A stretch of DNA of 64,000 nucleotides from an uncultured archaeon (lineage in GTDB: Archaea; Asgardarchaeota; Lokiarchaeia; Sigyniarchaeales; SOKP01), in assembly GCA_964632315.1 (NCBI GenBank), contig CAZWEM010000013.1:24907-88906 (forward strand), read 5' to 3'. The notes under the pieces were generated by a model, which worked only from the letters and a program-made list of their open reading frames with translations, made no database searches and was not told where the DNA came from. Positions within the stretch are counted from its first letter, which is position 1, and every line of letters starts with the position of its first letter. Of the stretch, positions 19,041 through 39,175 are shown piece after piece. The position numbers and the translations under genes were made by a program.

Positions 19041-19529
19041 GTGAGCCGTAGATATTACGCTAAGGGAAAAAAAACGTATGCTAAGGACCAGAACTTTGAT
19101 CAGGATCAAGTTGGCGAAGAAAAGGAGCGTTACTTGATTAATATATCCCTAATGAGCTTGAAGACGTTGAAGGACTATGATTTATTTGGTTGGCGGGGTG
19201 AATTTTATTTTAAATCCGATGGCGAAAAACTCTTTAAAGCCCGCTGGCCAAATAAAGGAACAATCAAATTGCAGAAAAATCAAGAATTTACTTCTAAAGC
19301 AGATATGTCTTTATGGAGTCAATTTAAAACCGTGCGTGCTGATGAAAGCATTGTTGTACCTGTAAAAGTTGAATTAAGGGAAAAAGATCACTTAAAGAAA
19401 GATTCCGTAATTGCTGAACAAACGTTTGAAATACGATTACCTCAGAAAACAGAATACGTAATCCTTCAGGATGATAAAGAAAGAACTAAAGCGAAACTTC
19501 GAATTCAAGCAACCAGAACTAGATATTAA
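19041..19529 (+). CDS. Putative C2-domain-like beta-sandwich protein
   Basis: LKDYDLFGWRGEFYF resembles the C2 loop-1 region; VELREKDHLKKDSVIAE resembles the C2 loop-3 region. Confidence 0.45.
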   Translation: MSRRYYAKGKKTYAKDQNFDQDQVGEEKERYLINISLMSLKTLKDYDLFGWRGEFYFKSDGEKLFKARWPNKGTIKLQKNQEFTSKADMSLWSQFKTVRADESIVVPVKVELREKDHLKKDSVIAEQTFEIRLPQKTEYVILQDDKERTKAKLRIQATRTRY

Positions 19530-19713: not shown

Positions 19714-19893
19714 CTATTCTTTTGAGTATTCGTTACTTAAATCTTCTGCTAATTTAAAGCCAAACTCAAAAAAATCTTTCATAGATTTATAAAATAAGTC
19801 ACCAACGACTTCTCCTACTCCTTCACTCAGTTCTTCTTTTTTATTCACCAAAAATTCATCAATTTTGGGCAAATCTTTTGTTAAATCTTCCAT
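19714..19893 (-). CDS. Small acidic amphipathic-helix protein, 59 aa (MEDLTKDLPKIDEFLVNKKEELSEGVGEVVGDLFYKSMKDFFEFGFKLAEDLSNEYSKE)
   Basis: Below the ORF-track cutoff. ATG at 19893, TAG at 19714-16, AAGGTGA SD-like site upstream, 23 bp downstream of the PlsC-like gene. Confidence 0.55.
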   Translation of the reverse strand: MEDLTKDLPKIDEFLVNKKEELSEGVGEVVGDLFYKSMKDFFEFGFKLAEDLSNEYSKE

Positions 19894-19916
19894 CTTTCCA
19901 TTTTCACCTTCTTTAA

Positions 19917-20612
19917 TTATTCTTCTTTTTTTGGCTTAAGAGAGTTGATAATCTTTATTATATCTTCAGCCAATTCATATCTTTGGTCTCGATATTTTTC
20001 ACGTGTAAGTCTTTTTTCTACCTTCAATGGGGTCCCAACTTTTACTCTCAAACCTGGACTATCAAATGTTCCAAATATTTTGCTTTTTTCAGTATAGATA
20101 GCTAAGGGGATAATTGGGGCATCTCCAGCAACCGCAAACTTTAAAATCCCTGCCATGGCTTTTATTTGGATATCGGGTTCTAATTTAGATTCAGGTGTCA
20201 TTGCTACTAAATCTCCTTCTTCATTAAGGTATTGAAACACCTTATCTATCGGTTCGGTATCGTCTTTATCTATTGTACTACGGAACATCCCTAAAGATTT
20301 CAATACAGGTCCATATATTTGATGTTTCATAAGTTTATGATGAACCATGAAGTGAATTCTCCTTCCTGAGACTTGGCTGATTATCGCCATATCTCGTAAG
20401 GCATTATCGCTAATGGTAGTTAAAATAGCTTTCCCTCTCAATGGGATGTTCTGTTTTCCTTCAATCTTAAGATCAGAAAATATGGTAAGTCCTAAACCGC
20501 TAATACCTTTCACTGCACCATACAAGACATCAAGCATGGTATCTTGATCGATTACTTTTTCCTTGCCTTCCGTTTCCGGAGTTTCTTGATTTCCAGACGC
20601 TGTGCCACTCAT
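19917..20612 (-). CDS. PlsC/LPLAT-family acyltransferase-like protein with degenerate catalytic motif
   Basis: IEGKQNIP..G, RIHFM, MTPE, APIIPLAI, VKVGTP; the HX4D site reads SDNALRD. Confidence 0.7.
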   Translation of the reverse strand: MSGTASGNQETPETEGKEKVIDQDTMLDVLYGAVKGISGLGLTIFSDLKIEGKQNIPLRGKAILTTISDNALRDMAIISQVSGRRIHFMVHHKLMKHQIYGPVLKSLGMFRSTIDKDDTEPIDKVFQYLNEEGDLVAMTPESKLEPDIQIKAMAGILKFAVAGDAPIIPLAIYTEKSKIFGTFDSPGLRVKVGTPLKVEKRLTREKYRDQRYELAEDIIKIINSLKPKKEE

Positions 20613-21086
20613 GAGTGATCATCCAAAAATATCGAGTTACTTTCCTAATTTATTTTAATTAAATGCTTATTTTTTTAATTAAATAAAAATCTAATCATAC
20701 AAAAGACACACAGAATAGTGTTATTATGCAAACATAAGAATTTTAATAATAATTATCTATCTATTAACCTCAATTACGTCAACGATCCACTCTGGATCAT
20801 TGATTCTCAAAATTAAGTCTTGTTATTTTAAAAAATAGATGGATTTCACAGAAATTTCCCCCTTAAAGTACTTCTTTTCGCCTTCCTTATTAAATCCTAC
20901 GGATACTTTGGTTTAGTTGTATATTTTTTCTTAGCATTAAGAAAAAAACCGTCCAAACTATTAAGAGATAAAAGTATCTAAAGATAAGTAAAAAAGCAAA
21001 TGAGATCGTTAAAAACCCTTCTAGTTGAAACTTCATGCATGTTTCACTGGTTTTACTTAATTAACTATTTTCTAAAGAAAAAGGCA

Positions 21087-21632
21087 TTACTCTCGTACTT
21101 TTTCTCTAATTGATAATTTTCTAATATTCGGGTATTCTTCTTCAAATTTATGTAAGATCTCTTTACATGATTTGCATATTGATCCTTCTGATACTATTAG
21201 TACTTCTCCATCTAAGAGTTTTTCCAACTCCCACAAATCTGCCATGGTAACAATCAATTTTCTTACTGCATGATACCATTCTTTATCTCCTGCTACATTC
21301 TTTACCTTAAACACTTTAGAAACAGGCGATATTGGATCGATGATTATGTCTTTTTTTCCATTTTTTGTTTCTATTATTGCAGTCCCCGGTATGAATTGCT
21401 TACCTTCGATTGCCATGATATACCCTTTATGGACTACATTTTCAGGAAATGTGTAATTGAATTTAACATAAGCTATATTCCCACTATCTTTATGCCACCC
21501 TTGTACTTTTCTCACATTTTCAATGATGATTTGGTCAGAGAAATTCGAACTTTTTTCAATGTTTAGTTTCTGTTTTATAGCGTCAATGAGCTCTTGATCG
21601 GATAAATTTTCTGATGATACTACCCAAGTCAT
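21087..21632 (-). CDS. Polymorphic-toxin-type nucleic acid deaminase domain, possibly inactive
   Basis: GNIAY, HAVRK (HAExK site), GEVLIVSE..ICKSCK.IL.KF...YPNI; frame open upstream to CTG at 21698. Confidence 0.6.
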   Translation of the reverse strand: MTWVVSSENLSDQELIDAIKQKLNIEKSSNFSDQIIIENVRKVQGWHKDSGNIAYVKFNYTFPENVVHKGYIMAIEGKQFIPGTAIIETKNGKKDIIIDPISPVSKVFKVKNVAGDKEWYHAVRKLIVTMADLWELEKLLDGEVLIVSEGSICKSCKEILHKFEEEYPNIRKLSIREKVRE

Positions 21633-21836
21633 CCTATTTTGATATTTTTCTAATTCCGCAGTGGATAGAAATTCAATTTTATTCTTCTCATCATTCAGAA
21701 TGGATTAGCACCTAAAATTTCGTTTTATTTTTAATCAATGAATATAATCCTTATAAACGTTTCAGATCTTCATTTCATAATTTTATTTTATCAACAAATA
21801 ACCAAAAAAGTGAATAAAAAAATTATAATTGATATT

Positions 21837-23510
21837 TTATACGTCTTTCACATCATACATGAGTAAACTCTTTAATTGAGCCATCATGTTATCCGTTAAA
21901 CGTTTTAATTCGTCATATTCGGGCATTGTTTTTCCCCAATATTGCTTATGTTCCATGAAGGGAGGTCCGGCTTTTAAGATACTTCCCTTATAAAAATTTA
22001 ACATTTTAGCATGTTTAGGATAAGTATCTTCTGTACCCGTAATACCAATTAAACAAATCGGGACTTGTTTTTCAATTGCTAATCGTACTGCTCCTGTATG
22101 GCCTTCTAGTATCTGACCCCCTCCAAGATTAGTGGTTCCTTCGGGATATATGCATACCAACTGTCCTTTATCTAAGAGATCTCTTGCAAAGTTAAAAGAA
22201 TCGACATCATGCTGACCTCGCTTCAAAGGAAACGCATGATGATTTCTAATCCAGGCATTTACGATTGGAATCTTGAATAAGGATTGCTTGGACATTTGAT
22301 AGATAACCCGGCGTGGTTCATTGTAAATGATGCTCGTAGCTAAAAGAATGACATCCCATTCGGAATTATGGGTTGTGCATAATACGGCTGAACCTGTTTT
22401 TGGAAGGTATTTATCAAAATCAATCGCCTTATAGGGGATCATTACTTGATTCCAGTTATGCACGATTTCACCGGATATAGTGTAAACTACTTTTTGGAAT
22501 TGTTCCCTCAAACCAAATTCTTCTAAAGATCGTAAGAATCCATACCAGATGTCGTCGATGGACCATAATGCCCCCATCGTAAAATCTTTAAACCACTTTT
22601 TAATATTAAATGACTCTTTCTTTTCAGGTTGTTGCGCTGATTCTGCTAATTCTTCTTCGGTCTTTCCATAGGTCCCCTCACGGAGCTCAAATACAATAGT
22701 GCGAAGCTCTTCGGTAAGTTTTCGTATGTCTTCATAACTTACTTTATTGGTATCATATTTATCATAATAGAGAGGATCACCAACCCTAGCAAAAACGTGA
22801 GTCGGCTTCATCATGAGGCCTCCTTTTGGTAATGCTTTATCTGAACCTATGATTGCCATTGGTACTATTGGTACTCCCGTCTCAATTGCTAATCTCACTG
22901 CACCAGTTTTGAACTGGCCCAATTCTCCTTCTGTTGAACGAGTACCCTCTGGAAAAATTCCAACCCACTCACCTTGATCTAATATCTCTTTTGCTTTCTT
23001 CCATCCTAACGCGGGATTATCTCGATCTAGTTTGAAAGCACCAAGATTCGTGAATAAACTTCTCACTATTGGGGTTTTAAAATTGTCTAATTTACTCATA
23101 AAACGGATTTTCCTATGGCAAGCCATACCACAGAAAAATGGGTCAATGTGGCTCTGATGATTGCTGACAACGATACCTGGGCCATAATCAGGAAACATAT
23201 TTCCTTTAGGATAATAATATTTGAAATTCCACAGTACACGCCCAATAAATTTTATATAAAACGTGGCTAGCCACCATTGAAGCCTCTGCTCCGTGAATTC
23301 AACATCTAATCGTCGAATAACTTCACGATATTGGTCATTCAAGAAATCTATAGGATTATTCTTTAGTAATTTATAGAGAAAATTTTCATGACCTTTTTCA
23401 TATTGCAGGTCTTCTTTCATTTTTTCCTCGAGGATCTTCTCGTGGTTGACTTCCCCGTAGGATTCATACGCCTCATAATCGCGTTTTTCGAGTTCTACCA
23501 TTTTTAGCAC
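21837..23510 (-). CDS. Tandem double PlsC/LPLAT acyltransferase
   Basis: Domain 1: NHQSHID, FPEGTRS, VPIVP. Domain 2: THNSEWD, YPEGT, VPICL. Confidence 0.9.
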   Translation of the reverse strand: MLKMVELEKRDYEAYESYGEVNHEKILEEKMKEDLQYEKGHENFLYKLLKNNPIDFLNDQYREVIRRLDVEFTEQRLQWWLATFYIKFIGRVLWNFKYYYPKGNMFPDYGPGIVVSNHQSHIDPFFCGMACHRKIRFMSKLDNFKTPIVRSLFTNLGAFKLDRDNPALGWKKAKEILDQGEWVGIFPEGTRSTEGELGQFKTGAVRLAIETGVPIVPMAIIGSDKALPKGGLMMKPTHVFARVGDPLYYDKYDTNKVSYEDIRKLTEELRTIVFELREGTYGKTEEELAESAQQPEKKESFNIKKWFKDFTMGALWSIDDIWYGFLRSLEEFGLREQFQKVVYTISGEIVHNWNQVMIPYKAIDFDKYLPKTGSAVLCTTHNSEWDVILLATSIIYNEPRRVIYQMSKQSLFKIPIVNAWIRNHHAFPLKRGQHDVDSFNFARDLLDKGQLVCIYPEGTTNLGGGQILEGHTGAVRLAIEKQVPICLIGITGTEDTYPKHAKMLNFYKGSILKAGPPFMEHKQYWGKTMPEYDELKRLTDNMMAQLKSLLMYDVKDV

Positions 23511-23752
23511 TTTTAAAATATTAAAATAAGGGATAAAAATTAATAATACACGTGAAATAACGTTATTTTTTACTATTAAATTTACTAAAATACCCTTTTA
23601 TATAAAAAGCTATTGACTACTGTAATATGCGATCGAGTATGAAACATGAAAAAAGACCTAGATTACTTTTAAAAGAGATTGATCATTTAGGAATGAAATT
23701 TCTAATTCAATAATTATTAAAGGCTTACTTCAGCTTTTTCACCAAAATGAAT

Positions 23753-24535
23753 TTAGGAATTTACTTTCATGCTCTCTTGAGAATTAGGATCTTCGACTAT
23801 TCTTTTTTCAATAATATCGATAAGCTGATTGAGATTATCAATTATCATGTTAGGCTCGAAATTTGAAAGTATTTCCCTACTACTTACACCAGTCATAACC
23901 GCAATAGTCCAAATTCCTGCTTCATTCCCGGCTTCTATATCGGAGGGCATATCTCCAATCATTATGAATTCATTTGCTTTTTTTGATCTATAGTTTTCAA
24001 AAATTGGATTTAATGATTCAGGATCTGGCTTTAAGGCGGGAAGCAAATCAGTTCCATATATACCTTTAAAAAAACCTTTTATCTTATGTTTTTCAAGATG
24101 TTCCATGATGTTTTTAGTTTGATTGTGAGACACGATAAAAAGATCAAACGACTTTTTCAGTTTTTTTAATATATTAACCGTATCAGGAAAAAGAGGTGCT
24201 TCTTTGGCATAGGTTAGATAACGCGAGAAAATTTTCGTCGCTATTTCCAACTTTTTCATAAAGGAAAGTGATTGAAGAGACGTGATATGTTTGAACATCT
24301 CATGAGATTGAAGTATGATTTTTGGTAATGGATACCCTTGAATTGTTTCCATGAGTGCGCCAATTTCTTGAATAGTTGAATCAATTTCCGCATTAATTTT
24401 ATTATCACTATAAATTTCATCAATGGAATTTCTTAATGGTTCGCTGATATCTAAAAGTGTCCCATCAAAATCGAAAATGATCCCTTTAATATCTCCATTT
24501 TGCAGTCGTTTAATTAACTGTTTATCTGAAACCAT
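23753..24535 (-). CDS. HAD-superfamily phosphatase (Gph-like)
   Basis: FDFDGTL, VSH, KPDP, IGDMPSDIEAG. Confidence 0.9.
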   Translation of the reverse strand: MVSDKQLIKRLQNGDIKGIIFDFDGTLLDISEPLRNSIDEIYSDNKINAEIDSTIQEIGALMETIQGYPLPKIILQSHEMFKHITSLQSLSFMKKLEIATKIFSRYLTYAKEAPLFPDTVNILKKLKKSFDLFIVSHNQTKNIMEHLEKHKIKGFFKGIYGTDLLPALKPDPESLNPIFENYRSKKANEFIMIGDMPSDIEAGNEAGIWTIAVMTGVSSREILSNFEPNMIIDNLNQLIDIIEKRIVEDPNSQESMKVNS

Positions 24536-26286: not shown

Positions 26287-26829
26287 ATGAATGAATATAA
26301 ATTCAAATTGTGCATAATCGGAGACGGAGGTGTAGGAAAAACCTCTCTTACACGCAGATATCTAGAAGGCGTATTTAAAGCTAATTGGAAAATGACGATC
26401 GGAGTCGATTTTTATCTTAAAAAGCTAAATTTTAATGATCAAAAAGTATCGCTTCAAGTGTGGGATTTCGCTGGAGAAGAAAAATTTAGGTTCCTATTAC
26501 CTGGTATTTTAATGGGTGCAAATGGGACTATTTTCATGTATGATATTACTAGATATTCTACGTTCAATAACTTAGATCATTGGTTAGAGGTATTTAATGA
26601 TACAAATAAAGAACACGGACAAGTTATCTCTAAAATTTTAGTCGGAAGTAAAACCGATTTAAATGATAATAGAGTAGTTTCTAAAGATGATGCGATAAGA
26701 TATGCCGAAAATGCGAACTTTTCAAACTATTTCGAATGTTCTTCTAAGAGCGGTGATAACGTAGAGGAAGTATTTGATAGAATCGCCAGAATAATGCTTG
26801 AACATGCAACTCAACTAAAAGTGAAATAA
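26287..26829 (+). CDS. Rab-like small GTPase
   Basis: GDGGVGKT, TIGVDF, WDFAGEE, SKTD, CSSK; no C-terminal prenylation cysteine. Confidence 0.92.
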   Translation: MNEYKFKLCIIGDGGVGKTSLTRRYLEGVFKANWKMTIGVDFYLKKLNFNDQKVSLQVWDFAGEEKFRFLLPGILMGANGTIFMYDITRYSTFNNLDHWLEVFNDTNKEHGQVISKILVGSKTDLNDNRVVSKDDAIRYAENANFSNYFECSSKSGDNVEEVFDRIARIMLEHATQLKVK

Positions 26830-31009: not shown

Positions 31010-32086
31010 ATGGTATTTAGTAACCCGATAAAAAACAAGAAAATAAAGGTTGGTATCCCCAGAGCACTCCATTTCTATCGTTACTACCCTTTTTGGAAAA
31101 AATTACTCGAAGAATTAGATGTTGATATCATTGTAAGTTCTCCAACAAATAAAACAATAGTAAATCTAGGGGTCACCCATGGTTTTGGTGAACTTTGTAT
31201 CCCTGTAAAAATATATTATGGACAAGTCATAAATTTAATCGAGAAATATTCTGATTTAGATTTTCTTTTTGTCCCAAGATATGTATCTGAAGATCCTGAT
31301 TCCTATTTTTGTCCTAAATTTATTTCACTCCCTGATGTAATTAAAATTCTACCTAAAATGCCAAAGATACTAAATTTTGAGGTAAATGCAAAAGAATTTC
31401 CCATTGCAATTTCTGCCATAGAACTTGGAAAACAACTTGGTAAAAATCCCATTGTATCTCTTAAGGCGTATAGGAAAGCACAATCATACTTCTATGAATA
31501 TCACAGATTTCTCCGTGAAGGAGGTTCAGTAAATTATGCTTTACGTTTAGTTCAGCGTAATTTACCTTTTAAACTCCCGAAAAAGCAACTTAAGGGGGAA
31601 ATTCGATTTCTCTTATTAGGTCACGCCTATAACCTATTTGATACTTTTATTAATTTAGATTTTATTAAAAAATTACAAGATCAAAATGTAGAAGTACTCA
31701 CTATTGAAAACCTCCCAGAATATATCTTCAAAAAACCAGTTATAGTAAATCCAAACGGAGGGAAATTAAGGAATTATTGGCGTCATGAAGAAGAAATAAT
31801 GCAAGCCATTCGATTTTTTCTTACTAAGGGTCGAAATGAAATAGATGGTGTCATTTTTTTAATTAGCTTTGCATGTGGTCCAGATAGTCTTATCTCTGAA
31901 TTAATAATGCGCGATATGAAAGTAGTTGGATTACCATTTCTGGAGATAATAATGGATGAACATTCGGGAGAAGCAGGAATGATGACTCGAATAGAGAGTT
32001 TTGTTGAAATGGTCCGTCGAAAAAGAAAGAAACTTGGTTTAGAACCGAGATGGAAATCAAAAACTAACTTTTCAGAAGATGTTTAA
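31010..32086 (+). CDS. DUF2229 / 2-hydroxyacyl-CoA dehydratase-like subunit (PlsA/Ger-related)
   Basis: VGIPRAL, LCIPVK, FCPKF, GHAYN, SFACGPDS, DEHSGEAG..TRIESF. Confidence 0.8.
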   Translation: MVFSNPIKNKKIKVGIPRALHFYRYYPFWKKLLEELDVDIIVSSPTNKTIVNLGVTHGFGELCIPVKIYYGQVINLIEKYSDLDFLFVPRYVSEDPDSYFCPKFISLPDVIKILPKMPKILNFEVNAKEFPIAISAIELGKQLGKNPIVSLKAYRKAQSYFYEYHRFLREGGSVNYALRLVQRNLPFKLPKKQLKGEIRFLLLGHAYNLFDTFINLDFIKKLQDQNVEVLTIENLPEYIFKKPVIVNPNGGKLRNYWRHEEEIMQAIRFFLTKGRNEIDGVIFLISFACGPDSLISELIMRDMKVVGLPFLEIIMDEHSGEAGMMTRIESFVEMVRRKRKKLGLEPRWKSKTNFSEDV

Positions 32087-32429
32087 GAAAGATTTGATTT
32101 CAATTATTTAAAGGAGATAACTATTAATACAAGGATTATATTTCAATTTTGTTCTTAATAGACTTAACTTACATCAAATTAGTTATTCCTTTTTCAAGAC
32201 TTTTTGATGTTTTCCATTAAATAATCAAAAAGTAATTTCTCTAAATTTTACCAATAATTATAGTCTAAAATCTACATAAAAATTAATTATTCTTATGCAT
32301 TTCGTTCATTTTACAAAAATAATGAGAAAATGTATAGTTTTCTTAAAAAAAAACCCATAATAATACTACTAAAAATATCAATTGTTTGAAGTTTTAAAGT
32401 TAAAGGATAATTTATTTATTTAAGGCTAT

Positions 32430-32470
32430 GATATTAAATCAAAGATCCAATTAATTAAGATATTAAATCA
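32430..32470 (+). repeat. 12-bp direct repeat GATATTAAATCA x2 (period 29)
   Basis: Copies at 32430-32441 and 32459-32470, just upstream of the start at 32491. Confidence 0.45.
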
Positions 32471-32490
32471 CTTTAAAAAATAAAAAAACT

Positions 32491-33678
32491 ATGCTTATAT
32501 CCTTTCCGAATTTAGGTAATTCATGGCCTGCCTTTAAAACGTTGTTTACGGCGTTGGACCTAGATGTAATCCTTCCCGATCCCACAAATCGAGAGGCAAT
32601 CAAAATTGGGGTTAAATATAGCCCTGAGTTTGTATGTTTTCCCTTTAAAGCAACACTTGGCGATTTTGTTAGTGCTATTAAGAAAGGAGCAGATACTTTG
32701 GTAATGGCAATCGATTGTGGACCTTGTCGCTTTGGGTTTTATGCAAGTGTTCAAGAACGGATTTTAAAGGACATGGGATATGAGAACATACATGTAATTC
32801 CCTTAGATCAAGCTGATCTTTTGGAATTTCATTGGGTCAAGACGCTTCAAGACTTAAATGGTCGAAAAGACTTGTTTATGTACTCGAAATTTGTTAAAGC
32901 AGTAATGTATTTCTTGAAAAAAACAAAATTAATACAAGATATTCAAACAGCAGAAGGATTATTCCGTGCTTATGAACGTAATTTAGGAGCTACGACTCAA
33001 GTCGTCAACAATTTATTACAGAAGTTAGATGAAGCTAACTCTTTACCAGAACTACGGAATTTTAAAAATGTGATCAAAAAAAATTTTAATACCATTGATG
33101 TTGATAAGACACGAACACCCTTAAGGGTTGGACTTTCAGGTGAGATTCATATTAGCCTTGAGCCATATGTAAATTTAGATATTAGGCGAAAATTAGGGGA
33201 GATGGGTGTTGAAATTCATCAGAATTTAAGTCTTTATGATTGGGTTATTCATAAATTTCATCTTAATTTTCACCGAAAATGGCTTGAACATTTAGCAAAA
33301 CCTTATGTACCAATGGATATTGGCGGTGAATGTGTTTGGGTTATTGGAGAATACATAGATAAAGCAAATGCGGGGTTTGACGGGTTCGTTCATTCCTATC
33401 CTTTTACGTGCATGCCTGAAGTGACTGCTCGGACAATTATAACCAATAAGCTTAAGAAAATTTACGATCTTCCAATAATTTATTTCTCTTTTGACGAGCA
33501 AAGTGGTCAAGAGGGTTTTCGAACACGATTAGAGGCCTTTTATGATTTAATGCAAGCCAGGCGTGACCAAGAAATTAAGAATACTCCAGAATTTATGGCA
33601 AATAGCAAACAGAAGATTTATCCATATTTTGGAGATAATTTTTATAATGAGATAGCTCAATTAATCCAAACAGAGTGA
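32491..33678 (+). CDS. 2-hydroxyacyl-CoA dehydratase-like reductase subunit (PlsR-like)
   Basis: SPEFVCFPFK, GPCRFG.Y, GEI, GGE, PFTCMPE, DEQSG..G..TRLEAF. Confidence 0.8.
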   Translation: MLISFPNLGNSWPAFKTLFTALDLDVILPDPTNREAIKIGVKYSPEFVCFPFKATLGDFVSAIKKGADTLVMAIDCGPCRFGFYASVQERILKDMGYENIHVIPLDQADLLEFHWVKTLQDLNGRKDLFMYSKFVKAVMYFLKKTKLIQDIQTAEGLFRAYERNLGATTQVVNNLLQKLDEANSLPELRNFKNVIKKNFNTIDVDKTRTPLRVGLSGEIHISLEPYVNLDIRRKLGEMGVEIHQNLSLYDWVIHKFHLNFHRKWLEHLAKPYVPMDIGGECVWVIGEYIDKANAGFDGFVHSYPFTCMPEVTARTIITNKLKKIYDLPIIYFSFDEQSGQEGFRTRLEAFYDLMQARRDQEIKNTPEFMANSKQKIYPYFGDNFYNEIAQLIQTE

Positions 33679-33686
33679 AAATGTAA

Positions 33687-34712
33687 ATGGTTGAAGTTTC
33701 AGATAAAGTAAAAAGTGATGAGAGGAAAAAAGAAGCTTTTTTAGGCATTGATATTGGTTCAGTTTCCTGTAAATTTGTACTCATGAATATAAATGGGGAA
33801 GTTTTGACAAGTGTGTTTTTACGAAATCGAGGTTCTCCGATAGATTCAGCAAAAGCGGGGATGTCAGAATTGAGAACAAAAATACAAGAAAATGAAGAAT
33901 TCCAAGATTATGTCATAAAGTGTTGCGGAACCACGGGTTCGGCACGTTATTTAACTAAAGCGGTCGTTGGTGGTGATTTAGCGAAAACAGAGATAATTGC
34001 TCATGCTGTTGCTACTCAATCAATGTATCCCGAGGTGCGCACAATTTTAGAGATCGGTGGGCAAGATTCGAAAATTATCATTTTGCGGGATGGAATAATA
34101 GTTGATTTCGCAATGAATTCGGTTTGTGCCGCAGGTACAGGTTCATTTCTTGATCACCAAGCAGGTAGGTTATGTATACCAATAGAAGAATTTGGAGATT
34201 ATGCTATTCGATCAACAAATCCGGTTAGCATTGCCGGAAGATGCACTGTATTTGCTGAATCAGACATGATCCATAAACAAAACGCGGGTTATTCCAAGGA
34301 AGATATTATTGCTGGCTTATGCGATTCCTTAGTACGTAATTATATGAATAATCTTGGAAAAGGAAAAGAACTGGAAGAACCTGTTGTATTTCAAGGAGGC
34401 GTTTCATATAATAAAGGAATTGTTGAGGCTTTTGAGCGCCATTTAGGCTGTAGGGTAATTGTACCGAAATATAATGTTTTTATGGGGGCATTAGGGATGG
34501 CAATATTGGTAAGGGATTATTATCTAGAAAATGGGAATGAAACTATATTTCGAGGTTTAGAAGTATCTGATATTGAATTTAAAACTTCTGCTTTTCACTG
34601 TGGGGATTGTCCTAATAATTGTGAAATTGTACAAGTCCAAATTCCCGAACAAGGTAATAAAATAATTGCTAGATGGGGATCAAGATGTGGAAAGTGGGAT
34701 CAGTTAACATGA
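33687..34712 (+). CDS. ASKHA-type CoA-enzyme activase (HgdC/BcrAD family) with C-terminal Cys cluster
   Basis: GIDIGSVS, TTGSAR, EIGGQDSK, MNSVCAAGTGSFL, RCTVFAESD, GGV; tail CGDCPNNC...RCGKW. Confidence 0.9.
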   Translation: MVEVSDKVKSDERKKEAFLGIDIGSVSCKFVLMNINGEVLTSVFLRNRGSPIDSAKAGMSELRTKIQENEEFQDYVIKCCGTTGSARYLTKAVVGGDLAKTEIIAHAVATQSMYPEVRTILEIGGQDSKIIILRDGIIVDFAMNSVCAAGTGSFLDHQAGRLCIPIEEFGDYAIRSTNPVSIAGRCTVFAESDMIHKQNAGYSKEDIIAGLCDSLVRNYMNNLGKGKELEEPVVFQGGVSYNKGIVEAFERHLGCRVIVPKYNVFMGALGMAILVRDYYLENGNETIFRGLEVSDIEFKTSAFHCGDCPNNCEIVQVQIPEQGNKIIARWGSRCGKWDQLT

Positions 34713-34739
34713 TTGTAAATACTTAGAGGTATATGTGAT

Positions 34740-34934
34740 ATGGCAGAATTTTTGAAGCAATTGATGGAATTGGGAGAAGAATTTTTCGAAACCATCAAAC
34801 ACAAGACTAAATTATCTACCTTTTTTGATATGTACACCGAAAAAGTTATTCCTACATTTGTTTCTGAGAAAGATTTAAAAGAGTATTACGAGAAGCGGAT
34901 GGAGGATGTAAATAAACTTATTGATAAATTATAA
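34740..34934 (+). CDS. Small helical hypothetical protein, probably co-transcribed with the activase
   Basis: GAGGT SD upstream; 27 bp after the activase stop. Confidence 0.6.
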   Translation: MAEFLKQLMELGEEFFETIKHKTKLSTFFDMYTEKVIPTFVSEKDLKEYYEKRMEDVNKLIDKL

Positions 34935-36498: not shown

Positions 36499-37059
36499 AT
36501 GAGTAAAGACTCTAGTGATATTGTTTTCCAAGGTCGAACTGAGGCAATATTTAAAGTAATTGTTATTGGAGATCCCGCCGTGGGGAAAACTAGCTTACTT
36601 ACCAAGTTTTCTACTAATAAGTTTGAGGAGCGTTACGTGGCAACGGTTGGGGTAAATATAGTTAAAGAACCAATCTCCTTAGAAACGCAGAACGTCACGG
36701 TGAACTTGATGTTTTGGGACGTTGCTGGACAACCCCAATTTTACATGCTTCATCGACCATATTTCAATGGAGCGGACGGTATGATTTTAGTATTTGATGT
36801 CACGCGTTCTAGCACGTTCAGTAATGTAAATAATTGGTATACTACAGCAGTCAAGTATGGATTAAGCCATATTCCTCGCATTTTAATAGGAAATAAAATT
36901 GATCTTAACGATGAAAGAAAAATCATTCTACCAATGGCTGAACATTTAAGTGAAAAACTAAACGCTCCATATTTAGAGACTTCGGCATTAACTGGTGAGA
37001 ACGTGAAATTCGTGTTCAATAAAATCGCGCAATTGGTATATGAGTCAAAAGCTTCATAA
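36499..37059 (+). CDS. Rab-like small GTPase
   Basis: GDPAVGKT, TVGV, WDVAGQ, NKID, ETSA. Confidence 0.92.
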   Translation: MSKDSSDIVFQGRTEAIFKVIVIGDPAVGKTSLLTKFSTNKFEERYVATVGVNIVKEPISLETQNVTVNLMFWDVAGQPQFYMLHRPYFNGADGMILVFDVTRSSTFSNVNNWYTTAVKYGLSHIPRILIGNKIDLNDERKIILPMAEHLSEKLNAPYLETSALTGENVKFVFNKIAQLVYESKAS

Positions 37060-38275: not shown

Positions 38276-39175
38276 GTGATTACAATTATACAATATTTAA
38301 ACCTCTTAACTAAGGACGGAAAGAGTCTCATTTTTAGGAACTATGGGAGCTCGGACGTAGATAGAGATTTATTAGCTGGTTTTCTAAGTGCGTTTTCAGG
38401 GTTTATGAAAGAGATAAGTCAACAAGAGATAAGATCTACAGCTACAGACGAATTTAAATACTATTATACCATAATTGATGACATAATTATTGTCGTGTGT
38501 GCTGATTTGGATGATGACGATACAACAATTAATTCAAAAATCACCACCATAAAAAATAAATTCATAGAAAATTATGGTGAGATTATATCTGATGGGTCAT
38601 GGGCAGGAAATCGCTCTGTTTTCAATTCTTTTGAGAAAGTAATCGATGATACCATTTTAGGTGCAATAAAAGTTTCAATCATCGGAATGGGTGGCGTAGG
38701 TAAAACAACTTTACTTCATCTAATTTGTGGAACTGATGTTGATCTAGAATATATTCCAACGATTAATGTCGACATCACGAATTATGATGGTTCAGAATTA
38801 GGGTTGAATCGTAGTATAGTTCTATGGGACTTTGCAGGCCAAGAAAATTTTCGATCCTTATGGAAAAGCCTTTTAGATTCTACGGATATTGCGTTATTGG
38901 TATTAGATTCAAGCTTCGAAAATGTTAATTCCAGTAAAGATATCATTGCCGATATATTGGATAAATATTATAAAGATGTTCTTGTAATCGGAATAGCAAA
39001 CAAACAAGATCTGCCTAATCGATTAACATCCGATTTCTGTGAAAAAATCATTGCAAAAGCAGACAGACACCCCCCTATTAAAGTTCATGGGATGATCGCG
39101 ATCAATCATGTATATAGAGAAAAAATTCATGCTATTTTAACAGAAGCGATAAATCAATTGTATCCGATAAAATAA
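38276..39175 (+). CDS. Longin-domain / small GTPase fusion
   Basis: N-terminal longin-like DG.SLI.R...DLLAGFLSA...F.KE; C-terminal GMGGVGKT, PTI, WDFAGQ, NKQD. Confidence 0.85.
   Translation: MITIIQYLNLLTKDGKSLIFRNYGSSDVDRDLLAGFLSAFSGFMKEISQQEIRSTATDEFKYYYTIIDDIIIVVCADLDDDDTTINSKITTIKNKFIENYGEIISDGSWAGNRSVFNSFEKVIDDTILGAIKVSIIGMGGVGKTTLLHLICGTDVDLEYIPTINVDITNYDGSELGLNRSIVLWDFAGQENFRSLWKSLLDSTDIALLVLDSSFENVNSSKDIIADILDKYYKDVLVIGIANKQDLPNRLTSDFCEKIIAKADRHPPIKVHGMIAINHVYREKIHAILTEAINQLYPIK

Follow-up and report, generated by a model that had tools for sequence, protein, structure and literature searches.

The window analyzed here, a 64,000-nucleotide stretch of contig CAZWEM010000013.1 from an uncultured archaeon of the Lokiarchaeia (order Sigyniarchaeales), carries an acyl-lipid locus centered on a protein with two PlsC-type acyltransferase (LPLAT) domains (Table 1). 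This double PlsC lies on the minus strand together with a HAD phosphatase, a third PlsC homolog that lacks the catalytic His (pseudo-PlsC) and a 59-aa peptide, and 6.5 kb away, on the plus strand, stands a block of reductase-like genes (D1, D2 and B) followed by a 64-aa protein (31010–34934). The order in relatives is HAD, PlsC-PlsC, D1, D2, B, 64-aa protein, pseudo-PlsC, peptide. The operon is real and conserved, and we read the minus-strand locus as its acylation half, which would serve the synthesis of non-isoprenoid glycerol lipids in Lokiarchaeia. A preliminary description made from the window's letters had listed the four acyl-lipid open reading frames (ORFs), all on the minus strand, and these are genuine genes with the motifs it quoted; it had missed the deaminase-like ORF at 21087–21632 and the displaced reductase half.

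The genome bin is 99.5% complete with 8.6% contamination, and 17 of its contigs exceed 45% GC, against 32% for the contig of the window. We call its family f1, other families of the same order f2, f3 and f4, and its genus g1. Synteny counts hold one row per genome, from the matches listed and with no picking by hand, and related genomes within them are not independent. Gene order was compared in 40 longer regions picked for diversity and for having two operon genes on one contig. Median ratios of nonsynonymous to synonymous substitution (dN/dS) are over unsaturated pairs, which are not independent either.

Table 1. Genes of the acyl-lipid locus and of the displaced reductase block, in window coordinates
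Feature	Coordinates	Strand	Details
59-aa acidic peptide	19714..19893	-	conserved core GDLFYKSMKxFFxxGxxLA; homologs directly 3′ of pseudo-PlsC in relatives
pseudo-PlsC, 231 aa	19917..20612	-	PF01553; His to Ser, EGTR to ESKL
deaminase-like, 181 aa	21087..21632	-	PF14424 (BURPS668_1122) 28.9 bits, cut-off 29.6
double PlsC/LPLAT, 557 aa	21837..23510	-	two PF01553 stretches; NHQSHID at 117, THNSEWD at 380
HAD phosphatase, C1 cap	23753..24535	-	Pfam HAD_2 E 1e-26; motifs DFDGT / S136 / K169 / GDMPSD
D1, DUF2229 + HGD-D-like Fe-S subunit	31010..32086	+	PF09989 E 2e-42; C63, C101, C289
D2, second DUF2229/HGD-D-like Fe-S subunit	32491..33678	+	PF09989 E 2e-11; C49, C79, C307
B, BcrAD/BadFG ATP-dependent activase	33687..34712	+	PF01869, TIGR00241 above cut-off; C-terminal CxxCxxxC extension
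64-aa conserved helical protein	34740..34934	+	follows B; shares the moves and losses of the reductase block

Acyltransferase domains, their inactive paralog and the phosphatase

Domain 1 of the double PlsC is canonical (NHQSHID...FPEGTRS) and domain 2 reads THNSEWD...YPEGTTN. The His and Asp of both HX4D motifs (H118/D123 and H381/D386) are invariant in 48 of 48 orthologs, bearing out the preliminary description of two intact LPLAT domains in one protein, and the scores for PF01553 and TIGR00530 are above cut-off (187 bits versus 23 and 162 versus 103). The structural model (predicted local distance difference test, pLDDT, of 78) has the T. maritima PlsC 5KYM as its best match (E 1e-9), and the median dN/dS is 0.07 (12 pairs). 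Known PlsC enzymes share with this protein the fold, the HX4D and PEGT motifs and the N-terminal helices before each domain. They differ from it in that the window protein has two diverged domains per chain, with HNSEWD and EGTTN (for EGTRS) in domain 2, and in that its locus adds a third, His-less paralog; the YPEGTTN motif suggests a different acceptor for domain 2. In a FastTree tree of single domains, domains 1 and 2 form separate clades, each with free-standing genes from f2 and f3, where the two domains are two adjacent genes, and the pseudo-PlsC domains form a third clade. The separate clades imply that two roles have long been retained, and such old, separately conserved paralogs fit two distinct acylation steps, in keeping with the earlier proposal that the domains could acylate sequentially. 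Bacterial double-PlsC proteins also exist, and their domains pair with their own duplicates, indicating separate duplications. Matches to the double PlsC were found in 131 of 151 genomes of the order and in 111 of 131 of f1, many of them incomplete. The PF01553 genes of this genome are all at this locus, apart from a fourth match, an actinobacterial-looking acyltransferase on contig C80, which was rejected as contamination because that contig has 68% GC. In f2, the second operon PlsC has undergone an independent loss of the His in G001, G005, G011 and G032; G020 and G028 keep it intact, and G018, G022 and G030 have no such gene. Judged by these motifs, a dead PlsC beside this gene system has arisen twice.

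The pseudo-PlsC aligns to domain 1 (hhalign 98.8%) with a Ser at the position of the catalytic His. Among 50 aligned sequences, that column holds Ser in 46, Val in three, Thr in one and His in none (His occupies the next column in two of the 50), which upholds the description of a third LPLAT without the catalytic residue, and the protein has invariant residues of its own (H87, K93, R111, K158, R208 and R211). Its median dN/dS of 0.08 (36 pairs) resembles that of the double PlsC; it is not decaying and is under purifying selection. It lies 3′ of the double PlsC in 31 of 31 same-contig cases among the matches listed (100 genomes have both), and in seven of seven genomes from three families of other orders it is the third domain of an ~870-aa PlsC-PlsC-pseudoPlsC fusion, split over two contigs in one of them. 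Complex prediction gave the double PlsC/pseudo-PlsC pair a score of 0.47, versus 0.00 for the best control; the runs had at least 93% of their contacts in common, and partner pLDDT was 83 or higher. The mark had been reached in calibration by 116 of 157 solved pairs and two of 215 mismatched pairs, and the passes at 0.60 or below came from 18 of the solved pairs and both of these mismatches. The predicted complex thus lends the pairing weak backing, and the fusion is the stronger argument for a partnership, with which the earlier idea of the dead paralog as a partner agrees. In f4 (L095, L098, L100), the pseudo-PlsC is separate from the PlsC genes and forms a divergent pair with a conserved aldolase-like gene.

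The phosphatase shows HAD motifs I to IV and the C1-cap fold, as the preliminary description's DxDxT phosphatase should, and the motif residues are kept in 31 to 32 of 32 orthologs at the loci compared. Among the matches listed, all 93 genomes with both genes on one contig have it 5′ of the double PlsC and on the same strand, within 500 bp in 70 (105 genomes have both in all), so the concern raised earlier that the gene might be unlinked in relatives falls away; the synteny survey then proposed, as run, finds the genes to form a conserved unit with the HAD linked. The phosphatidate (PA) phosphatase suggested earlier may be its role, yet the matches give no sign of the lipin type. The top structural matches are phosphoglycolate phosphatase (PGPase)-like HADs (Z 23.4, root-mean-square deviation 3.6, 213 residues aligned), from whose fold the substrate is not readable, and no lipin/LNS2 model appears among the Pfam matches or the top 50 structures, an absence that does not exclude PA-phosphatase activity. 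Coupling of a HAD DxDxT phosphatase to glycerolipid acylation is familiar from the PA phosphatase lipin/Pah1 and from plant GPAT4/6, an acyltransferase with a HAD domain; the window HAD differs from lipin/Pah1 in fitting HAD_2/PGPase-like C1-cap models, with no LNS2/lipin match listed. At the C-terminus of the HADs of the other orders (490 aa; L163:9958-11427, L205-L210) stands a conserved, helical extension of ~245 aa that belongs to no known family and for which an ESM Atlas search gave no usable match.

The 59-aa peptide is a conserved gene (median dN/dS 0.28, 57 pairs) confined to one family among the loci examined. The ORF of the preliminary description stands as a gene; its amphipathic character is modest, the best 18-residue hydrophobic moment of 0.57 being equalled by 8% of 3000 random 59-aa windows of the genome's proteins. 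The peptide is also acidic (net charge −8). Coating of storage lipids was given low weight, and the lipid-coating partner proposed earlier is not borne out. The peptide has a weak profile likeness to the N-terminal helix of the pseudo-PlsC (P 5e-4, probability 32%). The two small proteins, this peptide and the 64-aa one, were also compared by profile to each other, to the double PlsC and to the HAD extension of the other orders, with no match. Beyond the peptide, a 162-aa ORF at 19041–19529 (plus strand) has no Pfam/NCBIfam match, is 60–89% identical in relatives, is often convergent on the operon end (10 long loci) and may by eye be C2-domain-like.

The reductase block and its history in this genome

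B, D1 and D2 tile the ~1400-aa PF01869-PF01869-PF09989 (BBD-type) proteins end to end, with B aligning twice (~4–275 and ~318–630), followed by D1 (~670–990) and D2 (~1010–1395). Ger and PlsA, enzymes that convert glycerol esters to alkyl or alkenyl ethers by reduction, have been described with this BBD layout (PMC13159169, PMC9702350). Among 22 BBD-type proteins, the three D1 Cys are common to 20–22, the D2 Cys to 15–19, C147/C186 of B to all 22 and C305/C308/C312 of B to 19; the D2 Cys are invariant in 20 of 20 sequences. The trio has the PF01869, PF09989 and PF06050-like domains and the Fe-S Cys of PlsA/Ger, the HGD-D (PF06050) matches of D1 and D2 covering the C-terminal ~60 residues at 26.9 and 19.7 bits, below the cut-off of 28.4. 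It lacks the full-length PF06050 subunits of the 2-hydroxyacyl-CoA dehydratases HgdAB/C, and it has a single B and three genes in place of one fused BBD chain with two activation domains, for which reason we file it as PlsA/Ger-like and not as a member. Given also the low identity in a comparison with unassayed fused proteins, the relation is one of likeness, by which the trio would be a split PlsA/Ger-type reductase. Ger (T. maritima Tmari_0479, D. alkenivorans) and PlsA/PlsR (C. perfringens, E. faecalis) share with it PF01869, PF09989, the PF06050-like stretch and the Cys; they differ in that the trio is three genes with a single B, an extra 64-aa protein and 20–44% identity to the fused forms, and in that trios of the window type are operonic with PlsC and HAD.

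The same split architecture and gene order are found in the D-H-B operons of Bacillota, which are listed as PlsA/Ger homologs in strains mostly with ether lipids (PMC13274423 Table S7), and in Dehalococcoidia. These are homologs by listing and, in the published material available, are not reported beside acyltransferases; in our own survey of the Dehalococcoidia split form, PlsC and HAD adjoin it in one of 21 loci. A scan of named genomes with a Dehalococcoidales D1-D2 fusion returned Chloroflexota only and no assayed Ger/PlsA. The only DUF2229 genes of the genome are D1 and D2, and a separate 260-aa HgdC-type activase with an HGD-D-like neighbor lies on contig C28. The 64-aa protein has a median dN/dS of 0.06 (81 pairs) and a hydrophobic moment of 0.69, in the top 0.4% of random windows; an ESM Atlas search with it gave no usable match.

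Across relatives, the matches listed put D1 and the double PlsC on one contig in 93 genomes; D1 lies 3′ of it in 92, within 500 bp in 84 (94 genomes have both in all), the sole exception being the genome analyzed here. This count kept ~350-aa DUF2229 frames and dropped 800–1500-aa frames and most f2 rows; for 19 genomes that carry the double PlsC, no D1 was among the matches listed. The adjacent PlsC genes of f2 and f3 precede D1-D2-B, and in the other orders the triple fusion is followed by the 490-aa HAD and D1-D2-B in six of seven genomes, the seventh stopping at a contig edge. Some relatives have extra PlsA-like modules inserted in the operon, namely a 977–985-aa BBD protein with a 466–469-aa partner and a second trio in which D1 is fused to a FAD_binding_4 domain. 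This last fusion (~800 aa, with its own B and D2; L160:12131-14641, L161, L162, L168, L173) presumably resembles the DHCR24/tuberculostearate reductases. A survey of 251 genomes across the phylum found PF01553 in this class and in all 29 genomes of families f17, f25 and f28, of which five gave D1 matches, all weak. In families f8 and f30, 30 of 31 genomes have D1 paralogs and none of the 31 has a PF01553 match; at four of their loci, no PlsC lies nearby. The PlsC-reductase coupling was found only in this class and appears to be a feature of it. One f19 genome with both PF01553 and D1 looks mis-binned, and operon genes at G014:C102 and G178:C6, in genomes assigned to other families, are 78–84% identical to those of g1 and are probably mis-binned contigs or transfers.

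In this genome, the deaminase-like gene occupies the position of the reductase block of most relatives, and the intergenic gaps from HAD to peptide are 242, 204, 474 and 23 bp. Among the loci examined, the gene is otherwise at this place only in G025, G051, G073, G087 and G088, and it was rejected as a pathway part because these six genomes belong to one sub-lineage. The copy in the window has the CxxC and His of BURPS668_1122 deaminases and lacks the Glu of their H-x-E motif (H-A-V here; H-S/G-E in relatives, with Glu in G025, G051, G087 and G088). The double PlsC tree places this genome with G025/G051/G073/G087 (0.999) and then G019/G070 (0.992), and the trees of D1, D2, B and the 64-aa protein place it with G029/G079 (0.99, 0.98, 0.94 and 0.80). 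In G025 and G051, gene order matches the window to ~30190 and picks up again at ~36430, with the block left out. This pattern fits loss and then re-acquisition, the block having probably been regained from a congener. Against this, the pseudo-PlsC tree is discordant as well, and the block may instead have been relocated within the genome, which is the less likely course. Small GTPase genes on either side of the block (26287–26829, 36499–37059 and 38276–39175; two Rab-like, one with an N-terminal extension) are typical of Asgard archaea.

Ether lipids, ester lipids or other products

The reading we favor, to which we give an even chance, is that acyl-ester glycerolipids are made and then reduced by the PlsA/Ger-type trio to non-isoprenoid alkyl or alkenyl ethers; it draws on gene content, motifs, synteny, fusions and selection. 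The two PlsC domains would pass acyl chains to glycerol phosphate or a lyso-lipid, one position or acceptor each, with acyl-CoA from scavenged fatty acids as the probable donor. A possible acceptor is the mono-ether geranylgeranylglyceryl phosphate (GGGP), which would give chimeric lipids. The HAD would strip phosphate from a pathway intermediate (PA, lyso-PA or phosphatidylglycerophosphate), and activase B, driven by ATP, would work with the Fe-S subunits D1 and D2 and the 64-aa protein to reduce the ester to an alkyl or alk-1-enyl ether. The pseudo-PlsC, in this scheme, would have no catalytic role and would act as a partner, docking on the active domains and binding lipid or membrane, and the 59-aa peptide would be a minor accessory. 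A more ambitious form of this proposal is tentative, and we would put it below an even chance. In it, the two active PlsC domains, pseudo-PlsC, HAD phosphatase and split Ger-type reductase of Lokiarchaeia would form a membrane complex with channelling, whose products would be fatty-acid-derived alkyl or alkenyl glycerol ethers or chimeric isoprenoid/alkyl diethers. Myxobacterial ether-lipid clusters (elb and the MXAN_1676 region; PMC13012113) also combine an acyltransferase with a HAD phosphohydrolase; they differ in using AGPS/FAR or ElbD chemistry, with no ATP-driven Fe-S reductase in the clusters as described.

A number of observations speak against the ether reading. The genome has an isoprenoid route, with GGGPS adjoining DGGGPS-like and reductase-like genes and with CarS, Tes and AIPS-like genes; the idea that the operon replaces this route in f1 was rejected, since PcrB/GGGPS matches occur in 73 of 75 f1 genomes, two of them weak. 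GpsA, PlsX and a ketoacyl synthase were not found in the genome with the queries used, which is why the acyl donors are probably scavenged. The reductase trio was not found in five congeners, G025 and G051 (both 100% complete), G073, G074 and G087, in scans of which one had a positive control and another had none. These genomes keep HAD and/or the double PlsC and pseudo-PlsC, so that the acyltransferases would work without the reductase block. Identity to the fused forms is 24–32% for D1, 20–27% for D2 and 25–44% for B. HAD is absent from all of the 10 f2 loci examined, two of six HAD copies of the other orders have DxN in motif I, and a LarA-family nickel-pincer racemase lies in the operon in three of the seven other-order genomes (L163:11483-12862, L205, L207). 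In the literature, no ether lipids were detected in one of the strains that carry the split form (PMC13274423 Table S7), and the Ger/PlsA authors doubt that a single B domain suffices; in the Ger/PlsA literature as available, the assayed enzymes were all fused BBD and no assayed split single-B form was found. Finally, ether cleavage of lipids from cultured MK-D1 released phytane and biphytanes only (PMC7015854, PMC11316595), with a method that may miss ester lipids (PMC13400652).

Elsewhere, the genome encodes three tandem PlsY-family proteins of ~400 aa each with C-terminal membrane extensions (L175, G000:C3:138917-142762). A glycerol-1-phosphate dehydrogenase was found over the EgsA cut-off in none of 81 genomes and was not found in this one by tblastn or profile; weaker EgsA matches in 13 of the 81 are of the kind reported as AraM-like (PMC6737245).

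The congeners without the trio raise the question of whether the ester is itself the end product, with the PlsC pair and HAD making PA and then diacylglycerol, storage or chimeric ether-ester lipids beside an optional reductase that acts on something else. Family f4, with several PlsC genes and a pseudo-PlsC and with DUF2229 found in one of four genomes, points the same way, GGGPS is present to supply a lyso-ether acceptor, and chimeric lipids have been proposed before (PMC6737245, PMC9385802). We nevertheless consider this unlikely: D1 adjoins PlsC over several families and orders, PlsA-like modules have repeatedly been inserted at the same place, a crude pattern scan found no wax-ester/DGAT motif, and the peptide is acidic and not strongly amphipathic. 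The preliminary description is supported in part: the genes do form a conserved unit, and the main downstream partner that it had missed, a split PlsA/Ger-type reductase, favors ethers over storage lipids.

Alternatively, the substrates of the trio might be soluble CoA thioesters; it would then be an acyl-CoA reductase or a 2-hydroxyacyl-CoA dehydratase that prepares unusual acyl donors for PlsC. The C-terminal ~60 residues of D1 and D2 match HGD-D and solved 2-hydroxyacyl-CoA dehydratases, the LarA-family racemase suits 2-hydroxyacid chemistry, the trio has no transmembrane segment by hydropathy, and Lokiarchaeia ferment amino acids (PMC7015854). What makes such a role improbable is that the DUF2229 match spans the length of D1, whose resemblance to the fused BBD family far exceeds that to HgdAB, that B has the C-terminal Cys extension of that family and that a separate HgdC-type activase exists on C28. 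Little credence likewise goes to an operon that remodels or recycles scavenged bacterial lipids by transacylation, dephosphorylation and ether or ester cleavage, or that acylates a non-glycerol acceptor, and so makes no host membrane lipid. The genome's lack of a detected fatty-acid elongation enzyme, PlsX or GpsA, its GlpD-like oxidase and its 11 proteins with an acyl-CoA-ligase motif (by pattern only) would suit such a life, LPLAT-fold enzymes include PatA, LpxM and tafazzin-type proteins, and only isoprenoids have been reported from MK-D1. However, retention across f1 under strong purifying selection suggests a core role, the PlsC motifs of domain 1 are canonical, and ATP-driven activases work in the reductive direction.

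Relation to published work and meaning for the Lokiarchaeia

PlsC and PlsY in Lokiarchaeota have already been reported (PMC6431249, PMC6737245, PMC9385802, PMC13400652), the function of the PlsC homologs being stated as open (PMC9385802), and Ger homologs were reported with no gene context (PMC13159169). The f2 genomes have separate full-length BBD proteins, which may be those published Ger matches. The PlsC and Ger homologs were thus published separately, and we did not find a description of the joint operon in a literature search that reached few subscription papers and few supplements. Eukaryotic PlsC and plasmalogen genes have been traced to bacteria, notably Myxococcota (PMC6431249, PMC13012113). 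The bearing on the archaeal-to-eukaryotic lipid transition that the preliminary description had seen is accordingly indirect: the published phylogenies, as available, do not derive the eukaryotic genes from this class (PMC6431249), and a coupling found only in this class weakens the link further.

The operon context names partner enzymes for PlsC and predicts ether or plasmalogen products, in a domain of life from which plasmalogens have been described as absent (PMC13012113). The triple fusion, the independent His loss in the second PlsC and the loss and likely regain of the reductase offer natural variants for comparison. If the ether reading is true, Archaea would have a second, non-isoprenoid route to ether lipids, dialkyl glycerol ethers that are at present credited to bacteria in sediments would come in part from Lokiarchaeia, and lipid biomarkers of anoxic sediments could be assigned to bacteria only with a caveat.

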